64,000 bases of DNA from a phage: the NCBI GenBank assembly GCA_026209155.1, contig GCA_026209155.1_3056.1; one strand, 5' to 3'. This document shows, one piece after another, positions 2,746 to 41,197 of this stretch (within the stretch, counting starts at the first letter, position 1; every line of letters starts with the position of its first letter). The position numbers and the translations under genes were made by a program. Under the pieces are notes generated by a model. It made no database searches. It was not told the DNA's origin and saw only the letters and a list, made by a program, of their open reading frames with translations.

Positions 2746-4560
2746 TTGGCTCATCCATTCTTTACGAAGGTCAGCATTATCTCCCATGAGCATTTCAAAA
2801 AGCTCTTTCCAGTTCTCAGGAAGTTTAACAACATCATATACTGGGTTTTGAATCATCTCACGATATTCAGATTTTTCCAAAGAGCCAAGTCCTTTAATAT
2901 AACGGATGCTATGTTTAGGTAGAGCATCTTTGGCACTCTCATATTCAGCGACTGTATAAAACCATTCTTGTTTTTTACCGACCTGAGCGATGATTACAGG
3001 AGTTTTGACAAAGCGAATTCTTCCTTGTTCAAACAATTCTGGCCAATTACTAAAAAATCCGAGCAGAGAAGGATAAATGCTTCCTAGACCATCATGGTCA
3101 GCATCAGTCATAATAGCAATATTATGATAATTCAAGTTTTCAGCCTTTTCACCAAGAACTAATCCAGTGATTGCACAAATATCGAACAGTTCTTTGTTTT
3201 TAAGCATATCAGCATATGACATGCCCCAACTGTTAAGAACTTTACCACGCAATGGATAACCACCATGAAGTTCTTTATCACGAACATCAATAAGATATCC
3301 GATAGCAGAATCACCCTCAGTCAAGAAAAGAGTAGTATCAGCATCTTTACCGCAAAGATTCGCTTTGATATGTTTATGAACCTTAGCTTTAGAAGCCTTT
3401 TTAGCTGCTTTAGTTTCTGCTGCTTTTTCTGCCGCCAATTTACGAGCCAAAGCAGCTTCAATAATCGGCATTAGAATTGCTTCATTATTTAGAATAGCGC
3501 GTGAAATCTTTTTAGCATCAAGCTGAATATGACTACGAATTTCGCCAAATGGAGAAGTCAAACGCTCTTTAGTTTGAGAATCAAATCGCATGTTTTTCAT
3601 ATCACGAACAAACATAACGATAGTCAAACATTCTTTAACACGTGCTTTAGTTACATCAATTTTGAACTTACGTTTGATTTGTGGAATAAGGTCTTCACAA
3701 ATATCATCCATAACGCAGTCAATGTGATGGCCACCATTCTTAGTATGAATGTTATTGACGTATGTTAATTGACGAAAACCATCCGGTGAACGACCAACCG
3801 CAATAGAACAATTTTCTTGTTCTTGAACAATAGCATGTTCATCATATTGGCGTGCATATTTCTTAAAATTACCCTGAACCTTTTTACCATTAAAGGTAAA
3901 TTGAATATCAGGATAAACTACTGCAAGTGTCTGGAGACGATCTAGCGTAATGTCAAGATAAACTTGAGATAGTTCATTAGTTTCAAATGACATAAAATCA
4001 GGAATGAAAGTAACACGAGTTCCTTTCCATTTTCCAGGAATAGTTTCCCATGATTTATTTTCCATGCCATTTGAACAACGAACTACAATATTATTTTGAC
4101 CATCGCCAGTTTCACCGACAAACATCACAGAAAAAATGTTAGTTAAACTAGAGCCAACACCGTTCATACCGCCAGTGACGCGTTCTTTATCATCACCAAA
4201 GTTACCACCTGCTTTTGGAATAGTCCAGGCAGCAACAGGACCAGGAATTTCTTCACCAGTAGGTGTTTTAACCATCGCTTGTGGAATACCACGACCGTTA
4301 TCTTCAACTGTTACTTGATTGTTTTTGATAGTAACATTAATTTTATTTGCGAATTTAAACTTAGTACGAATACCTTCATCTACTGAGTTATCGATAATTT
4401 CATCAATAAGCTTAACAAGACCAGGTACATACTGAACACTTTCCCATTTACCAAACAGAAAGCGCTCATGCATTTCATTAGCGGAAGAGCCAATGTACAT
4501 GCCGCTACGCTTTTTGATATGTTCAATATCGCTCAGAATTTTAATTTCATTCTTAATCAT
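2743..4560 (-). CDS. 39: DNA topoisomerase II large subunit, unsplit form (GyrB-like ATPase plus TOPRIM in one ORF)
   Basis: 606-aa track ORF starts with GTG; ATG one codon in gives MIKNEIKILSDIEHIKKRSGMYIGSS... (T4 gp39 N-terminus); TOPRIM motif EGDSA present in the same frame, so no gene-60-type interruption. Confidence 0.9.
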   Translation of the reverse strand: MIKNEIKILSDIEHIKKRSGMYIGSSANEMHERFLFGKWESVQYVPGLVKLIDEIIDNSVDEGIRTKFKFANKINVTIKNNQVTVEDNGRGIPQAMVKTPTGEEIPGPVAAWTIPKAGGNFGDDKERVTGGMNGVGSSLTNIFSVMFVGETGDGQNNIVVRCSNGMENKSWETIPGKWKGTRVTFIPDFMSFETNELSQVYLDITLDRLQTLAVVYPDIQFTFNGKKVQGNFKKYARQYDEHAIVQEQENCSIAVGRSPDGFRQLTYVNNIHTKNGGHHIDCVMDDICEDLIPQIKRKFKIDVTKARVKECLTIVMFVRDMKNMRFDSQTKERLTSPFGEIRSHIQLDAKKISRAILNNEAILMPIIEAALARKLAAEKAAETKAAKKASKAKVHKHIKANLCGKDADTTLFLTEGDSAIGYLIDVRDKELHGGYPLRGKVLNSWGMSYADMLKNKELFDICAITGLVLGEKAENLNYHNIAIMTDADHDGLGSIYPSLLGFFSNWPELFEQGRIRFVKTPVIIAQVGKKQEWFYTVAEYESAKDALPKHSIRYIKGLGSLEKSEYREMIQNPVYDVVKLPENWKELFEMLMGDNADLRKEWMSQ

Positions 4561-4610
4561 CACTTATCCTCGTTTGGTTTCGGGAATATTATACTCCGGT
4601 AATCATAAAG

Positions 4611-4632
4611 CTAAAGGCCCGAAGGCCTTTTA
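4611..4632 (-). terminator. intrinsic terminator-like hairpin (GGCC-UUCG-GGCC stem, U-rich tail) after the 90-aa lipoprotein gene
   Basis: Palindrome aaaggcc cgaa ggccttt at 4613-4630, overlapping the stop codon. Confidence 0.45.
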
Positions 4633-4902
4633 TTTAAAACGGATAGTCGAATCCTTGAAGAATAGACCAGAACACACGGTTCCTTCTACTTTCTGCCCAG
4701 TAGGTCCAATAGCACGAAATCCAGTATGCTGGAAATCATTTTCAGAGCAACCGAACCAATTATATCCAGTGATTTCAATATTAGTAAAACCACTTGAAGA
4801 CAAAACTTTGGTTGCATTATCGGCATCAGTACATCCTACTAAAGATACTGCTAATACTAATGCCGCGATAGAACGATTAACATATTTCATAATTTCACTC
4901 AA
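4630..4902 (-). CDS. putative lipoprotein
   Basis: 90-aa ORF with signal peptide and lipobox (LAVSLVGC). Confidence 0.5.
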   Translation of the reverse strand: MSEIMKYVNRSIAALVLAVSLVGCTDADNATKVLSSSGFTNIEITGYNWFGCSENDFQHTGFRAIGPTGQKVEGTVCSGLFFKDSTIRFK

Positions 4903-5266
4903 ATTTAATGGCTTGAAGAAGACTAATAATTCTCAAGCGACTTCTTTCATCTTTAACTGTAAAAGAAAGAGGGTCACCAGATTTCATAGTGATGGTGCAT
5001 CCAAAATCAAAATCTTCTGTAACTTCTTCGAATAGGTCAAATTCTTCATCATAAATTAGAACATTACTCTGAAAACTGTGAAGAATTTTTCCATCATTTC
5101 CAGATGCTGTACTAATCACTGTAACATTATTACCTTTCATATCTTCAACGATAAATTCGCTTGTAGATATTACATTACTAATAGAACCATTCCTATAAAT
5201 AGCAGAAAATAGATATTTCTTTTCTTCACCTTCGCGAATGCGATATTTCTTACCGATTTTAAACAT
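4895..5266 (-). CDS. hypothetical protein
   Basis: Track ORF 4895..5272 begins with GTG; first ATG gives MFKIGKKYRIREGEEKK... (123 aa); ATGA-type junction with upstream small ORF. Confidence 0.45.
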   Translation of the reverse strand: MFKIGKKYRIREGEEKKYLFSAIYRNGSISNVISTSEFIVEDMKGNNVTVISTASGNDGKILHSFQSNVLIYDEEFDLFEEVTEDFDFGCTITMKSGDPLSFTVKDERSRLRIISLLQAIKFE

Positions 5267-15364: not shown

Positions 15365-15883
15365 TTAATAACCTCGGTCTTGACGAGCGAAGTTTTCAGC
15401 ATTTTTCAGATAATAAAGTTTAAAGATTTCTTCAGCCGTAAGACCGAGACCTTGGAACATGTTCAGAACGAAATGAAGAATATCAATCATTTCGAATTTA
15501 ATTTCCAACTGGTCTTGCGGAGACAAATCAGTAATTAGAGTTTCACGACGTTCACCATGTTGAGCTTTCCAAGGCTTCCATACAGCAGATGCATCTTTTT
15601 CGCCATTGCTCATACCGCCAAGAGAAGTTAGAAGTTCACGGAATTCATCGTCAATATAATCTTTCTGATTACGCAGCCAATCAACAACTTCACCTGCAGT
15701 AGCCAAATCATCAGGATGACGGTTATATTCAGGTTTATCTTTAGCTAAACGAACTTGCAGAGATTTCTGCATATCAAGCATAACCTGCAGTGGGTCTTTT
15801 TCATCACCGAGAATATCCCAGTATTCATTTTGAGCTTTATCAGCGCCTTCGATCAGTTGTGAACATTCATTAAAGTATGCCAT
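15365..15883 (-). CDS. 56: dCTP pyrophosphatase (dCTPase-dUTPase)
   Basis: ATG at 15881-15883 with AAGGA RBS gives 172 aa (MAYFNECSQLIEGADKAQNEYW...); the track ORF has a 31-codon upstream extension. Confidence 0.8.
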   Translation of the reverse strand: MAYFNECSQLIEGADKAQNEYWDILGDEKDPLQVMLDMQKSLQVRLAKDKPEYNRHPDDLATAGEVVDWLRNQKDYIDDEFRELLTSLGGMSNGEKDASAVWKPWKAQHGERRETLITDLSPQDQLEIKFEMIDILHFVLNMFQGLGLTAEEIFKLYYLKNAENFARQDRGY

Positions 15884-15915
15884 TATTTTTCCTTTCAATT
15901 CATGGGTTAGTAGAT

Positions 15916-15945
15916 TAATTATACAATAAATATATAAAGCAATAA
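15916..15945 (-). promoter_or_regulatory. MotA-dependent middle promoter for gene 56
   Basis: Minus strand reads ATTGCTTTA (MotA box) - 11 nt - TATAAT; plus-strand coordinates taaagcaat 15935-15943, attata 15918-15923. Confidence 0.5.
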
Positions 15946-15954
15946 GGAGGACAT

Positions 15955-16155
15955 ATGGTGCAAAAATTAATGGCACTTGTTGATGCCATCAAAGGTAATA
16001 AAAAACGTATAGCTTTTACTATTTCTGCTATGATAGGAATTTTACTTTGGAATTTTGTTTTATCGCCAGTTGCTATTGCTCATGGCGTTAGTATTCCAGT
16101 AATTACTCTTGATACATTCGTAGATTTAGCATTTGCTTTAGTTGGGTTAATTTAA
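15955..16155 (+). CDS. candidate small hydrophobic protein on the plus strand (66 aa)
   Basis: ATG at 15955 preceded by AAGGAGG (4-nt spacing); MVQKLMALVDAIKGNKKRIAFTISAMIGILLWNFVLSPVAIAHGVSIPVITLDTFVDLAFALVGLI; exactly fills the 56-61 spacer; convergent with gene 61 (4-nt overlap). Confidence 0.3.
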   Translation: MVQKLMALVDAIKGNKKRIAFTISAMIGILLWNFVLSPVAIAHGVSIPVITLDTFVDLAFALVGLI

Positions 16156-17180
16156 ATCTTAGCATATTTAGATAGCCGCATTTTAGCCATCAACCCCTGC
16201 GCAATATTATTTTTCATATATTCCATAATTTGTTCAGGGGTTGCACCTTCCTTTCTAATCATATCATTGACATCTTTTGATTTCCAGGGAGATTTATCCC
16301 AAAACATAACCCTTTCTCCTGCATCAACTAATTTAGTCATTCGTTTAATAGTGTCAGGGTGACGAGGTTCATTATCTAAAACCCATACACGTCTATCTTT
16401 AAATGGAACAATTTCTAGGTCTAATTGACCACCCGTAATAGCTATACCATTTTCAATAAAAAGTGAATCTATAGGTCCTTCTAGAACATATACATCACCA
16501 TCTTTAACCCGTTCGACTCCATAAATTTTTGTTGCCTCAGGATAAGCTTTGATGGTGATATATTTTTGGGGAGCGTCTTTCTTTAATGCACGTCCTTGAA
16601 AAGACTCAGCTTTTCCATTAGCATTATAAATTGGAATAACAAGACGAGGCTCAGGTATTTCCTTTTTATATGTTCCTGGCGCTATGCTATTAACTAATTT
16701 AGGCCATTCGGTTGTAAACCAAAGATATTTCCATTTATCCTTTGGAATACAGCGAGCTTTTACGTATTTTATAATTGGATGGTCTTCCGTCAGTTTATCT
16801 AATCTAATGCATGACGGAAGAGATTTAATTATTTTCTTCTCGGGTTGTTTAGGAAGTTCTTTAGGTTTTTCTACTGGACGACTTTTACCTTTTTCTTTTC
16901 TTATTTCAAAGATATACTCACGATATAAATCAGGTTCAAACTCCTTTAAATATATTCCGATTGGTGCATGATAGTTACAGTTATAGCAATGAATATTTCC
17001 TTCATTATTATCACCATAATACCATCCACGGGCTTTATTTTGGTCGGTTTTTGAATCTCCACAAACAGGGCATCTAAACCGTAATTTAAAAGTTGAACTA
17101 TTATTTACTTGTGTAAATTTAGGTAAATGAGCTAGCGCACGATATGCAAACTCATTATCAATCCAAGGTATTGATGACAT
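16152..17180 (-). CDS. 61: DNA primase
   Basis: 342-aa ORF, MSSIPWIDNEFAYRALAHLPKF..., zinc ribbon CPVCGD...CYNC and TOPRIM; same length as T4 gp61. Confidence 0.9.
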   Translation of the reverse strand: MSSIPWIDNEFAYRALAHLPKFTQVNNSSTFKLRFRCPVCGDSKTDQNKARGWYYGDNNEGNIHCYNCNYHAPIGIYLKEFEPDLYREYIFEIRKEKGKSRPVEKPKELPKQPEKKIIKSLPSCIRLDKLTEDHPIIKYVKARCIPKDKWKYLWFTTEWPKLVNSIAPGTYKKEIPEPRLVIPIYNANGKAESFQGRALKKDAPQKYITIKAYPEATKIYGVERVKDGDVYVLEGPIDSLFIENGIAITGGQLDLEIVPFKDRRVWVLDNEPRHPDTIKRMTKLVDAGERVMFWDKSPWKSKDVNDMIRKEGATPEQIMEYMKNNIAQGLMAKMRLSKYAKI

Positions 17181-20265: not shown

Positions 20266-20616
20266 TTAAAAGAATTTAAATTTTTTCTTTGACCTTTTAT
20301 TAAATGCATCTTGTAGTTGCATTGTAATACATTTTTCTACATGAGGAGCTAACTCAGCTTTTCTTTCTTGGTCAAGAACAGCAAAGTCCATTACAACCTT
20401 TCCATCAACCCAATCCAGTTTAGTTACATACACTATATGTGTAGAACCATCTTCTAGTTTAATGACAATCTCCTGGATAACATTTTCCATAGCGGATTTA
20501 ATTATCTTAAGAGACTCATTAAAAAGACGTTCTTTTCTTTCTTCTTCCCCCTCCGAAGAGGGGGATTCATCGATAATTTCTAGATCTAAATCTAAATCTA
20601 AATCATCTTTATTCAT
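20266..20616 (-). CDS. 40: head-assembly protein gp40-like
   Basis: Track ORF starts with GTG at 20634; first ATG (20614-20616) gives MNKDDLDLDLDLEIIDE...; located between 41 and uvsX as in T4. Confidence 0.55.
   Translation of the reverse strand: MNKDDLDLDLDLEIIDESPSSEGEEERKERLFNESLKIIKSAMENVIQEIVIKLEDGSTHIVYVTKLDWVDGKVVMDFAVLDQERKAELAPHVEKCITMQLQDAFNKRSKKKFKFF
20584..20604. repeat. hexanucleotide microsatellite (ATCTAA) x3.5 encoding a DLDLDL repeat in gene 40
   Basis: atctaaatctaaatctaaatc at 20584-20604; a GC-rich hairpin ccccctc cgaa gaggggg lies just upstream at 20547-20564. Confidence 0.7.
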
Positions 20617-21790
20617 TAAATTCTTCCATATCACTTAACTGTTCGAGGTCAGTTTCTAAATCAGCAGCTGATTTACTTTTACTTTCTGGAGATTTAAATT
20701 TTTCAACCTTTGAGTTAATCAATTCATCAACTTCAGCTTCAACAATTTCATTGCTATCAATAGCACCTAACTGATAAGCACGTTTAATAGCATCTCGGAA
20801 TGGTTGATGCTTAAATAAAGGACCCCAGAATGTAGTGCAGTTGGTATCTTTTGCACGCCAAGATTTTTCTTCGCGAATCATCTCACCGGTTTCTTCATCA
20901 AGAAATTCACGAGCATACCAACCGTTCTTAGGTTTTACCACGAATCCTAATTCTAGAGCCATATCTAACAATCCAGAATAAGGATCGATACCACCATCAA
21001 ATTTAACATCAATAAAGAATTTACTTTTTTCTTTAACGGTACGAGATTTTTCTACATTTAGAACAAATTGATACCCCTGAAGATCAGAACCATCTTTAAT
21101 CTGGCGTTTACCGATAATGAATACGGTATCAGCCGAATACATTACGCCTGTACCACCTGTCATCACGGTTTTACTAAACATTTCAATTGTTTCAATTGTA
21201 TGGTTAACCGCAACACATGGAATATTTTTAATGCTAAAATAAGGAGTAACAATACGGAATAATGACTTCAGTGATTTAGCACGAGTCATATCTGCCACAG
21301 ATTTTTCATTCAAGGCATCTTCCGTTTCTTTCTTAGAAGCCATATTACCAATTGAGTCGATGAATACAATAACTTTTTCACCACGCTCAATAGCTTCAAG
21401 CTGATTCACCATATCAATTTTCAGCTGTTCAACTGACTGGATTGGTGTATGAATTACACGTTCCGGATCAACTCCCATGGATCGCAAATAAGCTGGAGTA
21501 ATACCAAATTCGCTATCATAGAATAGACAAACCGCGTCAGGATATTTGTTCAAATACGCCGCAACCATAGTCAAAGACATATTTGATTTAAAGTGTTTAG
21601 AAGGCCCTGCGAAAATAGTTAAACCAGACTGCATTCCACCATCAATCGCACCAGAAATAGCGATATTGAGCATTGGGATTTTTGTACGGATTACATCCTT
21701 TTCATTAAAGAATTTAGATGTAGTCAGCTCAGCAGTCATTTTAGAAGTGGAAGCTTTAATCAAACGGGATTTTAAATCTGCAATAGACAT
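20609..21790 (-). CDS. uvsX: UvsX recombinase (RecA-like)
   Basis: 393-aa ORF; Walker A GPSKHFKS region and C-terminal acidic tail; high similarity to T4 UvsX as recalled. Confidence 0.9.
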   Translation of the reverse strand: MSIADLKSRLIKASTSKMTAELTTSKFFNEKDVIRTKIPMLNIAISGAIDGGMQSGLTIFAGPSKHFKSNMSLTMVAAYLNKYPDAVCLFYDSEFGITPAYLRSMGVDPERVIHTPIQSVEQLKIDMVNQLEAIERGEKVIVFIDSIGNMASKKETEDALNEKSVADMTRAKSLKSLFRIVTPYFSIKNIPCVAVNHTIETIEMFSKTVMTGGTGVMYSADTVFIIGKRQIKDGSDLQGYQFVLNVEKSRTVKEKSKFFIDVKFDGGIDPYSGLLDMALELGFVVKPKNGWYAREFLDEETGEMIREEKSWRAKDTNCTTFWGPLFKHQPFRDAIKRAYQLGAIDSNEIVEAEVDELINSKVEKFKSPESKSKSAADLETDLEQLSDMEEFNE

Positions 21791-21841: not shown

Positions 21842-21871
21842 TAATTATAACACAATAAATTTAGGCATTAA
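21842..21871 (-). promoter_or_regulatory. possible middle promoter for uvsX (MotA-box variant)
   Basis: Minus strand AATGCCTAA - 11 nt - TATAAT (plus attata 21844-21849); one mismatch to the TGCTT core. Confidence 0.3.
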
Positions 21872-22716
21872 TCAACTGCTATTGGATGAATAGCATTAAA
21901 CTTATGAAATGCTTCTGATTTTTCTTTACGAGAAATACACATGCGAAGAACCTTTAATGGCTCGTCTTCTTCACCCAACGATTTTCGTTTTTCAATATTA
22001 GAAGTTTTCCAACGAGCTTGCTCTGGAAACTCTCTATTGATTTGTTCAAGCGCTCTATTATGTTTAGAATTACTACGAATTGAACTGCACCCGCCGGGAG
22101 CGTGTGATTTTCCAGATACAACTAGATATTTGAACAAGGCCAAATGCGGATAACCTTGATTAATTAAATTGAGAAATGCGTACATATCTTCACATAAATC
22201 AATTTTTCCATACCCAATTTGTTCTGTCGTAAGTTTTCCGAGGTCATACCATGTATTCGTGAATCCATATGAGTTTTCACGATAATTACCCCAAGATGAA
22301 GTAATTTTAAAAATAGGTAGACGAGCATGGCCATGATAATACCCACAATCCATGGCATCCTCAACGTATTGAATTAATTCATAGAACTGTTCACGAGTTA
22401 ATTGATTAATTTTATCTACGCGCCGTTTATCGTCTCTCTTTCGTATTGAACTCATACGAATAGTAGTATCATCATCAATCATCCAGATTCGTTGACCTGC
22501 ATACATGTCAGTAATTGCTTTACGAGTACCGGCAATTCCGTTTACATCATCAGGAATAGTTATAATTTTAGCTCTAGACCCATAGGCATCATAATAAGCT
22601 TTTTCTTCGTGTTCACGCACTACAATATGTGGTTCATAATCAGTCGGAAACATATCAAGGGCAGAAACTGCCCCTACACGTTGATAGCTTGGAATTACGA
22701 ATTGAATCATTTCCAC
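21868..22716 (-). CDS. putative GT-A-type glycosyltransferase at the beta-gt locus
   Basis: 282-aa ORF with DXD-like motif IWMIDDDTTIR; unlike T4 beta-gt (351 aa, GT-B fold); position between uvsX and gene 42. Confidence 0.5.
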   Translation of the reverse strand: MEMIQFVIPSYQRVGAVSALDMFPTDYEPHIVVREHEEKAYYDAYGSRAKIITIPDDVNGIAGTRKAITDMYAGQRIWMIDDDTTIRMSSIRKRDDKRRVDKINQLTREQFYELIQYVEDAMDCGYYHGHARLPIFKITSSWGNYRENSYGFTNTWYDLGKLTTEQIGYGKIDLCEDMYAFLNLINQGYPHLALFKYLVVSGKSHAPGGCSSIRSNSKHNRALEQINREFPEQARWKTSNIEKRKSLGEEDEPLKVLRMCISRKEKSEAFHKFNAIHPIAVD

Positions 22717-23447
22717 TCACCGTTATAATCTTTTTTCACAATATGAGTTTCGCCAGTATTCCACCAATGATCAACCAAGTAAAAATGACGAGAATATACA
22801 TGAAGACTTCCAACATTCCATATAATAGAACCTGCTTTATACTGACGAGTTGAATCGCCTGCATTCAAATCAGATACTAATTTATCTAATACGTATTTTT
22901 GCCATGCATAATCATTACGGAATCCGAAGACCACGTCATTTGAGCGCATGCTTACTACTGCATTGACTTTCTTATCACGAATCAGGTACTGTACTGTATT
23001 AGTACACATGAAATCTGACATACCATCTTTATTGTAGTCAAATTGCATGGATGGACGAGTATAAATCATGATACCACGTCGAGAATCAGGATTTTGACCA
23101 AGTTCAGCTAAACACATATCATACTGAGCATAGTTATCTTCTGACCAGATAGCCCAACCGTAATTCGAGTTAATTTCACCTTTAGAAGATGCTACTTGTT
23201 GCCAAATCTTCGGTGTTTCACCCGGAATATCTTTAACGAACAAGCTCTTAGATTTATACCATTCAAGTTCACGCTGAATGTATTCATCATTAAGAGCGCC
23301 AAAAATAAACGGTTCATCTGCTACAAATGATGCGCCAATAATTTCAATAGTTTTAACACCAGTTTTATCAACTACGAAATCTTTTTCTTTTAATGCAAGC
23401 CCCAAATGAAGACGGATTTCTTCAACTGTCATAGAGTCACTAATCAT
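22707..23447 (-). CDS. 42: dCMP hydroxymethylase
   Basis: 246-aa ORF MISDSMTVEEIRLHLG..., thymidylate-synthase-like; same length as T4 gp42. Confidence 0.9.
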   Translation of the reverse strand: MISDSMTVEEIRLHLGLALKEKDFVVDKTGVKTIEIIGASFVADEPFIFGALNDEYIQRELEWYKSKSLFVKDIPGETPKIWQQVASSKGEINSNYGWAIWSEDNYAQYDMCLAELGQNPDSRRGIMIYTRPSMQFDYNKDGMSDFMCTNTVQYLIRDKKVNAVVSMRSNDVVFGFRNDYAWQKYVLDKLVSDLNAGDSTRQYKAGSIIWNVGSLHVYSRHFYLVDHWWNTGETHIVKKDYNGEWK

Positions 23448-23454
23448 TTAAACC

Positions 23455-23604
23455 TCAATTGATACATTCATATTTAACTTGTAACAGTAATAAACTCCAA
23501 CCTAAAATAATAGTTGGAATCATAAGAGGAACCGTTACACTATAGTATATACTTATTATAACCATCAAGATTAAAAGCAACACTGCTATAATTTTGCTTT
23601 TCAT
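23455..23604 (-). CDS. hypothetical membrane mini-protein (49 aa)
   Basis: Not in ORF track; ATGA overlap with imm stop; MKSKIIAVLLLILMVIISIYYSVTVPLMIPTIILGWSLLLLQVKYECIN. Confidence 0.35.
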   Translation of the reverse strand: MKSKIIAVLLLILMVIISIYYSVTVPLMIPTIILGWSLLLLQVKYECIN

Positions 23605-24250: not shown

Positions 24251-24487
24251 TCAAATGCAAGTAGTAATTACTCCAGTAGTGCTTATGCAGGTATTACCCA
24301 TTTGCACACCTAAAGATCCATTTGTATTCACATGAAGATTATCATCAATTTTAACTGATATTTTACCATTAGTGTGAATAACAGTGCTAGATTCAATCAC
24401 AGGTTGAGTATCATTTTCAACACTAACAAATGGAACTGCTGTTAATGCAACTAAACAAACTGCTAAGCATCCCATAACAATTTTCAT
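24251..24487 (-). CDS. secreted small protein
   Basis: Internal ATG (24485-24487) with GGAG RBS gives MKIVMGCLAVCLVALTAVPFVSVEN... (78 aa); track ORF extends upstream through the promoter. Confidence 0.45.
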   Translation of the reverse strand: MKIVMGCLAVCLVALTAVPFVSVENDTQPVIESSTVIHTNGKISVKIDDNLHVNTNGSLGVQMGNTCISTTGVITTCI

Positions 24488-24522
24488 TTTATTCTCCAAA
24501 TCTGTATCAGTAGTTGATAGTT

Positions 24523-24556
24523 GTATAGTACCATGGAAGAACAGTCTTGTAAACAG
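24523..24556 (-). promoter_or_regulatory. T4-type early promoter with conserved leader
   Basis: Plus atagta 24525-24530 and gtaaac 24549-24554; downstream leader ...CAACTATCAACTACTGATACAGATTTGGAGAATAAAATG is repeated at two other loci. Confidence 0.55.
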
Positions 24557-24635
24557 TTTTGTGAAAAAATTTTTTAATGAATCCAAAAGGTCCAGAATCA
24601 TCTGTTTTTCACAAGTATAGATTTATATTACTTGT

Positions 24636-39899: not shown

Positions 39900-40370
39900 T
39901 TAATCATGTTTCCACACCCCATCGGTATTTGACCAAAGTCGCTGATTATCTGAACCTCGCCACAGCTTTTTAGTCGGAAGATTTTTCTCATACTTCCCAT
40001 CAATAATAACATCAACATATTTAAGCATTTCTAGTTGTTTAATATCTTCAAACTTGTACCCTGTCCACAACCAAATGCTTTTATTTGGATAAAGATTTTT
40101 TACAGTTTGAACAATGCAATGAACATCATCTCGGTTATCAGGATAAAGAGGGTCACCTCCGGTTATAGTTAATCCTTCTATATAATCATTATTCAAACAT
40201 TCAATCAATTGTTCTAGTGTTTCACCAGTAAATGGAATACCATTTCTAGCATTCCATGTTGATTTATTATAACACCCTTCGCATTTATGCAAACAACCTG
40301 TAACGAAAAGAACGACCCTGCATCCAGGGCCATTCACAAAATCGCAAGGATAAAATCTATCATAATTCAT
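39900..40370 (-). CDS. nrdG: anaerobic ribonucleotide reductase activating protein (radical SAM)
   Basis: Start at internal ATG gives MNYDRFYPCDFVNGPGCRVVLFVTGCLHKCEGC (156 aa) with a CxxxCxxC-type cluster. Confidence 0.8.
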   Translation of the reverse strand: MNYDRFYPCDFVNGPGCRVVLFVTGCLHKCEGCYNKSTWNARNGIPFTGETLEQLIECLNNDYIEGLTITGGDPLYPDNRDDVHCIVQTVKNLYPNKSIWLWTGYKFEDIKQLEMLKYVDVIIDGKYEKNLPTKKLWRGSDNQRLWSNTDGVWKHD

Positions 40371-41197
40371 AATAATATCCAATTTTTCCAAGCTTCATCA
40401 GTAGAATTACAGCGTTTTAGTATAAGATGTCTAGAAACTTTTATGGAATTTGAGCACTTTTTAATTGAATCATATTTAATACCGTCAACTGAAACGGTTT
40501 TGCTAGTTGGAGAAATTTTTCCATACATTGGATTTTTTGAACCAACTTGAAGTCCTTTTAAAGCTTTTGAAAGCTTTTGTCTAGATTCCAATGACATGGG
40601 AGAATTCTTTTTACCTTCAATAATTCGCTTGCGATGAAGTTCGCGTTCTTCTTCACTCAAAGAATTGTAATATTTTTTAACACCGTTTGATATAGATAAT
40701 TTATCTTTCTCAGACCGCTCTCCAGCTAATTTACTTCTAACATCTTTTCGCTTCATAGCTATGCTTACGGCTTTATTTAAATTTGCTTGATGCTCTGGCG
40801 TACGTTTATATTTCTTTAAAGCACGTGAAATAGCTATTTTAGTTTCTTCTGTTCTCTTTTTACCTTTATTTGCTAAACTATTTTTGTGGCGATGTTCAAG
40901 TGTCTGTTCATAGGCAGTTCCACCTTTTCCACCAGGTTTAATATTATATGTATTTTCTTTTAGACAATACTCTTCAGTTACAAGTTCAGCTTCTTTATCA
41001 TACATTTGCTTTTCATTATCAAAAACATATAAAATTTCTTTATAAAAATTTTTTATACCATATTTTAATAAAGCAGCACGAATCAATGTTCCTGATCCCA
41101 TATAACCGTCATTTATATTATCGGTGCTATGCGCACCGATATATTCCTTTGAATTAATTATATTTGTTATTTTATAAATTATATAATACCTATGCAT
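40367..41197 (-). CDS. free-standing GIY-YIG homing endonuclease (Seg-like)
   Basis: 276-aa ORF; N-terminal YYIIYKITNIINSKEYIGAHS motif; NUMOD3-like repeats (KGKKRTEETKIAISRALK, SPMSLESRQKLSKALKG); wedged between nrdD and nrdG with 4-8 nt overlaps. Confidence 0.7.
   Translation of the reverse strand: MHRYYIIYKITNIINSKEYIGAHSTDNINDGYMGSGTLIRAALLKYGIKNFYKEILYVFDNEKQMYDKEAELVTEEYCLKENTYNIKPGGKGGTAYEQTLEHRHKNSLANKGKKRTEETKIAISRALKKYKRTPEHQANLNKAVSIAMKRKDVRSKLAGERSEKDKLSISNGVKKYYNSLSEEERELHRKRIIEGKKNSPMSLESRQKLSKALKGLQVGSKNPMYGKISPTSKTVSVDGIKYDSIKKCSNSIKVSRHLILKRCNSTDEAWKNWILL

Follow-up and report, generated by a model that had tools for sequence, protein, structure and literature searches.

In phages T2 and T6, the DNA modification pathway has been described as running from gene 42 via alpha-gt to TAGT, the TET-associated glycosyltransferase (bioRxiv 10.64898/2026.02.25.707755; PMC13216743). 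A T6 mutant deleted for the TAGT gene is described as carrying ~75% alpha-glucosyl-5hmC, and the glucosidase BapA released glucose from the DNA of this mutant, but not from wild-type T6 DNA (bioRxiv 10.64898/2026.02.25.707755). The share of the doubly glucosylated base differs strongly between the two phages: T6 DNA is quoted at 72% gentiobiosyl and 3% alpha-glucosyl, and T2 DNA at ~5% gentiobiosyl-5hmC, the latter in both bioRxiv 10.64898/2026.02.25.707755 and PMC13390438. A recent study, in which DNA from ten Tequatrovirus phages was analyzed for its nucleosides by HPLC/MS, described TAGT as syntenic with T4 beta-gt (PMC13390438, AEM 2026), and reported 5hmC, alpha-glucosyl and alpha-gentiobiosyl nucleosides, without the beta-glucosyl form, for CP, QOTSP, TB37, EL, Geo and BGP.

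TAGT of T6 has been modelled with AlphaFold3 and placed in the GT-A superfamily, where it is sister to GT2 (PMC13216743, NAR 2026). According to the same study, TAGT is usually paired with an alpha-GT or a beta-GT, and the alpha-GT plus beta-GT pairing of T4 is rare, being found in 6 of 753 genomes. Members of this diverse family are also found next to beta-GT, or in genomes that lack alpha-GT and beta-GT altogether (PMC13216743), and these varied partners imply that specificities within the family vary. A 'non-T4' gene at the beta-gt locus is the normal state, and the T4 gene there is the rarer arrangement. Published work already covers the TAGT gene with its fold class and distribution, as well as the DNA chemistry of close relatives, and we deal here with an ordinary and common feature of T4-like phages. 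A preprint on contingency loci, considered as a further source on TAGT, concerns alpha-gt instead and was set aside.

We analyzed a 64-kb stretch of phage DNA, referred to as the window, which judging from gene order and sequence is a segment of a Tequatrovirus (T4-like) genome. It is 96-98% identical across 22 kb to many Tequatrovirus phages. The first-pass annotation had described a 282-aa glycosyltransferase gene at 21868..22716 between uvsX and gene 42. Both neighbors were recovered at the expected places (Table 1), and a minus-strand ORF of 282 aa from a GTG, which contains IWMIDDDTTIR, is indeed present in the ORF list and the sequence. Homologues are present in 689 phage records and are near full length in 685 of these, which marks the ORF as a real, conserved gene rather than a chance ORF. 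Its proposed length has to be revised, as translation most likely begins with the ATG at 22710 and not with the GTG at 22716. The resulting 280 aa are favored because the homologues of T2, CP, EL, Geo, BGP, QOTSP and TB37 are, every one, annotated from the equivalent ATG and given as 843 nt and 280 aa. Residue numbers throughout refer to the 280-aa protein. Gene 42, which at the nucleotide level is 96% identical to its T4 counterpart, lies directly upstream, so that translational coupling of the two genes is likely. A scan for promoters and terminators around the TAGT gene returned 12 sites compared to 9.2 ± 2.7 in shuffled sequence and thus no excess.

Table 1 Features of the TAGT locus and of its partner gene in the window.
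Feature	Position	Strand	Basis or remark
uvsX, downstream neighbor of TAGT	20609..21790	-	translation; syntenic annotations of T2/T6/T4
TAGT (ba-gt, ggt) CDS, beta-glucosyl-HMC-alpha-glucosyltransferase, 280 aa + stop	21868..22710	-	T2/T6 identity, Pfam, PHROG
G206-G207-C-S-S-I-R212, family-specific motif	22075..22095	-	G206 100/101, G207 101/101, C208 87/101, R212 98/101
E174-D175, 'ED' motif	22186..22191	-	E174 84/101, D175 101/101
Hypervariable patch, codons 85-106, two Tequatrovirus alleles	22393..22458	-	window I89, K95, R97, I101
D79-D80-D81 (GAT GAT GAT), DXD-type motif	22468..22476	-	100/101, 101/101, 100/101; putative metal/UDP binding
Arg11, codon CGT	22678..22680	-	R in 100/100 family sequences of the alignment; His (CAT) in T2
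Start region	22707..22716	-	in-frame GTG (22716..22714), likely ATG (22710..22708), ATGA overlap with gene 42 stop (22709..22707)
Gene 42, dCMP hydroxymethylase, directly upstream of TAGT	22707..23447	-	translation; syntenic annotations
alpha-glucosyltransferase (a-gt), 400 aa	34926..36128	-	99% identical to T2 alpha-gt

Comparison with the T2 and T6 enzymes, as proposed in the first-pass annotation, revealed 97% identity to the T2 beta-glucosyl-HMC-alpha-glucosyl-transferase over 280/280 aa and 96% identity to the annotated T6 protein across 261 aa. The protein also matches PHROG 842 ('beta-glucosyl-HMC-alpha-glucosyltransferase') with E=3e-88 over residues 2-277. With Pfam PF20691 (TAGT) it scores 39.8 bits against a gathering cut-off of 27.5, residues 5-209 aligning to profile positions 2-205 of 205. 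It differs from this Pfam entry by a ~70-residue C-terminal extension past the domain (residues 210-280). Moreover, no TET/JBP gene adjoins TAGT in the window, where 5hmC is supplied by a thymidylate-synthase-like hydroxymethylase. With the enzyme of T2 and T6 (ba-gt, ggt or g-gt), the gene shares the 280-aa length, the locus between gene 42 and uvsX, the ATGA overlap and the alpha-gt partner, whose presence had been pointed out before. The two proteins differ from that of the window at 9 residues (T2) and at 10 residues plus the amber codon of the T6 record used. Most of these differences lie close together, in codons 89-101 and 202-203, and the window has R11 where T2 has H11. The identity to both enzymes, the PHROG match and the common locus and partner support the earlier suggestion of a second-sugar enzyme as in T2/T6. 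We are therefore very confident that the gene is a T2/T6-type beta-glucosyl-HMC-alpha-glucosyltransferase of the TAGT family (PF20691) with a GT-A fold, an assignment that includes the pathway and the expected DNA composition set out below.

Homologues of the protein are widespread. Among the 689 records, 471 fall at 95-99% identity and belong to Tequatrovirus-type phages of Escherichia, Shigella, Yersinia and Salmonella, while ~200 at 60-80% identity belong to phages of Klebsiella and Enterobacter and to other T4-like phages. An exhaustive HMMER search yielded 373 cluster representatives at E<=0.001; the extent of the family is taken from this search, as a word-indexed one gave just 11 proteins.

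A sequence search of the PDB revealed no solved relative, its sole matches being chance hits to a PNPOx-like protein at E=1.6-2, and the fold therefore had to be taken from prediction. The second structure model, built from 101 diverse homologues, reached a pLDDT of 94.2 and a pTM of 0.92. It consists of a single Rossmann-like alpha/beta/alpha domain that resembles solved GT-A enzymes, which are also its best structural matches, and shows neither the two-domain GT-B architecture nor a non-glycosyltransferase fold. D79-D80-D81 follow directly past the end of the central beta-strand (residues 74-78), as is typical for a DXD motif. The proposal of a GT-A enzyme, which had been made from the DXD-type motif, is thus borne out by the near invariance of these aspartates and by the structural matches of the model.

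Conservation was counted in the alignment of 101 diverse TAGT homologues. The window protein has every residue that reaches 90% conservation among them; besides those of Table 1 at this level, these include the near-invariant R63 (92/101) and G186 (99/101). While this conservation is observed directly, the catalytic roles of the residues are deduced by analogy. D79-D80-D81 would hold the metal-UDP, as they are placed like the DXD motif in GT-A enzymes. If the transfer is inverting, the most evident candidate for its catalytic base is D175 of the 'ED' motif, which could act as in GT2-like GT-A enzymes. Together with the known beta linkage of the product, the DXD motif and the invariant D175 suggest that TAGT depends on a divalent metal and follows an inverting mechanism; inversion from UDP-alpha-glucose would be consistent with the beta-1,6 linkage of gentiobiose.

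The pathway that we propose for the phage is drawn, step by step, from established T-even biochemistry. Gene 42 would make 5-hydroxymethyl-dCMP, which would take the place of dCMP in the DNA. After replication, alpha-gt would put glucose from UDP-glucose in alpha linkage on about three quarters of the 5hmC. Finally, TAGT would use UDP-glucose in an inverting transfer to attach another glucose at the 6-OH of the alpha-glucose and yield alpha-gentiobiosyl-5hmC (beta-1,6). For TAGT itself, the transfer of glucose from UDP-glucose, in beta-1,6 linkage, onto alpha-glucosyl-5hmC in DNA is predicted on indirect grounds, namely the HPLC/MS results for phages whose enzyme is 2-8 residues away (PMC13390438) and the T6 deletion mutant (bioRxiv 10.64898/2026.02.25.707755). 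As read from the 64-kb window, we predict with high confidence that the phage DNA contains 5hmC, alpha-glucosyl-5hmC and alpha-gentiobiosyl-5hmC, without beta-glucosyl-5hmC. The gentiobiosyl share is expected to lie between ~40% and ~70% of hmC, the exact ratio not being predictable from sequence. The first-pass annotation had held that the modification cannot be stated from sequence alone; this is right for the ratio and too cautious for the kinds of modified base, which can be predicted.

Three other readings of the gene have to be weighed against this one. Its position at the locus of T4 beta-gt would suit a divergent T4-type beta-glucosyltransferase (GT-B) that places a single beta-glucose onto 5hmC. 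However, BLASTP against T4 beta-gt returned E=4.1 and thus no similarity, the best structural matches of the model are GT-A enzymes, and homology with T4 DNA ends at the gene borders, breaking at 22725 and resuming at 21778. A tblastn search with T4 beta-gt across the whole 64-kb window revealed no beta-gt-like sequence either (best E=1.4). The full-length similarity to T4 beta-gt that would have spoken against the first-pass proposal is hence absent, and the BLASTP result together with the GT-A matches refutes a T4-type enzyme, to which we assign practically no probability. T4 beta-gt (PF09198), which is 351 aa long in the annotation of the T4 locus, has the locus and the decoration of 5hmC with UDP-glucose in common with TAGT. 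It differs by its GT-B fold (PMC13216743), which the first-pass annotation had stated, and by its lack of sequence similarity, and it acts on 5hmC itself where the acceptor of TAGT is alpha-glucosyl-5hmC. A member of the TAGT family could also use another donor or acceptor, e.g. another sugar or 5hmC directly, as is conceivable from the diversity of a family that includes members without alpha-GT or beta-GT and thus varies in specificity (PMC13216743). We consider this highly improbable for the window, given the 96-97% identity to the T2/T6 enzymes, the matching locus and alpha-gt partner, and a distance of only 2 residues from the enzymes of phages measured as gentiobiosylated.

The third reading concerns activity. 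A TAGT as weakly active as that of T2 would leave the DNA essentially alpha-monoglucosylated with a few percent gentiobiosyl, and the T2 gene, 97% identical yet associated with ~5% gentiobiosyl-5hmC in the literature, demonstrates that small sequence differences can matter. But the T2-specific R11H strikes a residue that is Arg in 100/100 family members and, among 531 matched records, is restricted to the 7 T2 records and SV76. At positions 11 and 251 the window agrees with the high-gentiobiosyl phages (R11, P251), and phages with its allele (EL, Geo, BGP) reach ~40% gentiobiosyl (PMC13390438). A T2-like weak enzyme is thus very unlikely, and a TAGT that forms gentiobiosyl-5hmC to a substantial extent is the reading we follow.

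The comparison with T4 also revealed a trace of the gene in T4 itself. T4 NC_000866 24238-24262 (L013:4239-4263) contains a 25-nt relic of the last TAGT codons and the stop, which is 24/25 identical to window 21866-21890 and is found after beta-gt, just ahead of the start codon of segA. This relic suggests that the T4 arrangement of beta-gt plus segA replaced TAGT in a TAGT-bearing ancestor, which fits the published view of the T4 pair as recent and rare. A TATCTTTAACC(A/G)GTG motif is common to the intergenic regions of T4 and the window; it is short, the order differs between the two, and we attach no meaning to it.

The TAGT gene is not uniformly conserved among Tequatrovirus phages. Mismatches between the window and TB37 number 9, 8 and 5 in the three 60-nt bins of nt 241-420 (22 in 180 nt), compared to 0-5 in the other bins, and mark a hypervariable patch at codons 85-106. 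Codons 202-203 (window 22102-22107) vary along with the patch, the gene being otherwise ~95-97% identical. Two alleles can be told apart by residues 89, 95, 97, 101, 202 and 203. The T6-type allele (M R C V A Q) is found in T6, CP, QOTSP and TB37, and the Durham phages carrying it contain about two-thirds gentiobiosyl and a trace of alpha-glucosyl (PMC13390438). T2 has the same six residues plus R11H and P251S and is quoted at ~5% gentiobiosyl. The EL-type allele (I K R I S H) is found in EL, Geo and BGP, in which 5hmC, alpha-glucosyl and gentiobiosyl forms occur at ~1:2:2 (PMC13390438). The window carries the EL-type residues at all these positions, and across codons 85-106 ~98 of 474 records show at least 95% nucleotide identity to it.

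The TAGT of the window differs from those of the Durham Collection phages EL, Geo and BGP (OZ034682, OZ034685, OZ035849) only by I50V and I259V (98.0% identity to the EL gene at the nucleotide level), and from those of CP, QOTSP and TB37 by 8, 8 and 7 residues. The surrounding genome tells a different story. EL, Geo and BGP have a divergent alpha-gt allele with ~35 substitutions relative to the window, whose alpha-gt is of the T2/TB37 type. They also carry dam (DNA adenine methyltransferase), along with one additional gene in the interval from gene 56 to gene 61. The corresponding interval of the window (15365-17180), delimited by genes 56 (dCTPase) and 61 (primase), has no dam and holds a single small plus-strand ORF (15955..16155). 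This arrangement is shared with T6, CP and TB37 and is unlike that of T2, T4, EL, Geo and BGP. By alpha-gt allele and lack of dam, the window thus groups with the phages at about two-thirds gentiobiosyl, and by its TAGT allele with the ~1:2:2 group. Judging from these sequences, the allele of the window correlates with partial conversion (~1:2:2) and the T6-type allele with near-complete conversion, a correlation confounded by the alpha-gt allele and dam. As EL, Geo and BGP form one close lineage that differs in both, the ratio for the phage of the window is not predictable.

The low gentiobiosyl level of T2, 5%, has been known since the 1960s. In a study from 1965, T2 x T6 hybrids showed the proportions of one parent or the other, so that the trait is discrete and heritable (PMC2137963). 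His11 of T2 (CAT, a single G-to-A change from CGT) and P251S are present in 3/3 aligned T2 records (LC348380, L002:8105-8107; also L005 and L006). Among 531 matching records, only 7 T2 records and SV76, which is T2-sized, are identical to T2 throughout codons 1-22. From the sequence comparison, R11H is a plausible cause of the ~5% gentiobiosyl level of T2 compared to 72% in T6, and a limited literature search found no paper stating it as such. More generally, we tentatively suggest, as a possibility we would not bet on, that small allelic differences of TAGT (the patch with codons 202-203, and R11H in T2) may set the extent of di-glucosylation in T-even phages. If the allele-to-ratio link and the effect of R11H were both true, the TAGT sequence would allow one to predict the modification pattern and with it how sensitive a phage is to type IV nucleases and DNA glycosylases specific for glucose, and the hypervariable patch would be a target of diversifying selection. 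The correlation and the R11H hypothesis are the sole mildly novel threads of this analysis.

Both T6 records examined contain an apparent lesion in the gene. In MH550421, codon 10 is TAG (Q10amber; L001:7951-7953) and the gene is annotated from Met20 with 261 aa. In AP018814 (L004, CDS 4135-4974), one GAT of (GAT)3 is absent, so that DD replaces DDD in a protein of 279 aa. These lesions may be laboratory-stock mutations or sequencing errors, and they are relevant where T6 serves as the gentiobiosyl standard.

The sugar pattern on 5hmC sets which host defenses can attack a phage: the targets are bare 5hmC for McrBC, glucosylated forms for GmrSD, BrxU and TgvAB, alpha-glucosyl-5hmC for Brig1 and unmodified 5hmC for Brig3. 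Whether CRISPR nucleases and laboratory restriction enzymes can cut the DNA depends on the sugar pattern as well. The alpha-gt plus TAGT type groups the phage of the window with T2/T6 and most other Tequatrovirus, for which gentiobiosyl-5hmC, about a quarter to a third of bare 5hmC and no beta-glucosyl-5hmC are characteristic. Knowing the type is no discovery, but helps annotation, phage therapy and engineering.

Several other ORFs of the window deserve mention. Two minus-strand ORFs, 23455-23604 (49 aa) and 24251-24601 (116 aa), both predicted to be hydrophobic, flank imm / imm.1 in the interval from gene 42 to the gene for DNA polymerase; in relatives, the annotation of the corresponding ORFs does not go beyond 'phage protein' or 'hypothetical'. 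Further along, a minus-strand ORF of 276 aa (40367-41197) is 45% identical to T4 SegA along 115 aa (tblastn E=3e-20) and probably encodes a seg-type (GIY-YIG) homing endonuclease. It lies directly downstream of a 605-aa ORF, with an overlap of 8 nt, and this latter ORF, reading its translation by eye, looks like the anaerobic ribonucleotide reductase (nrdD).
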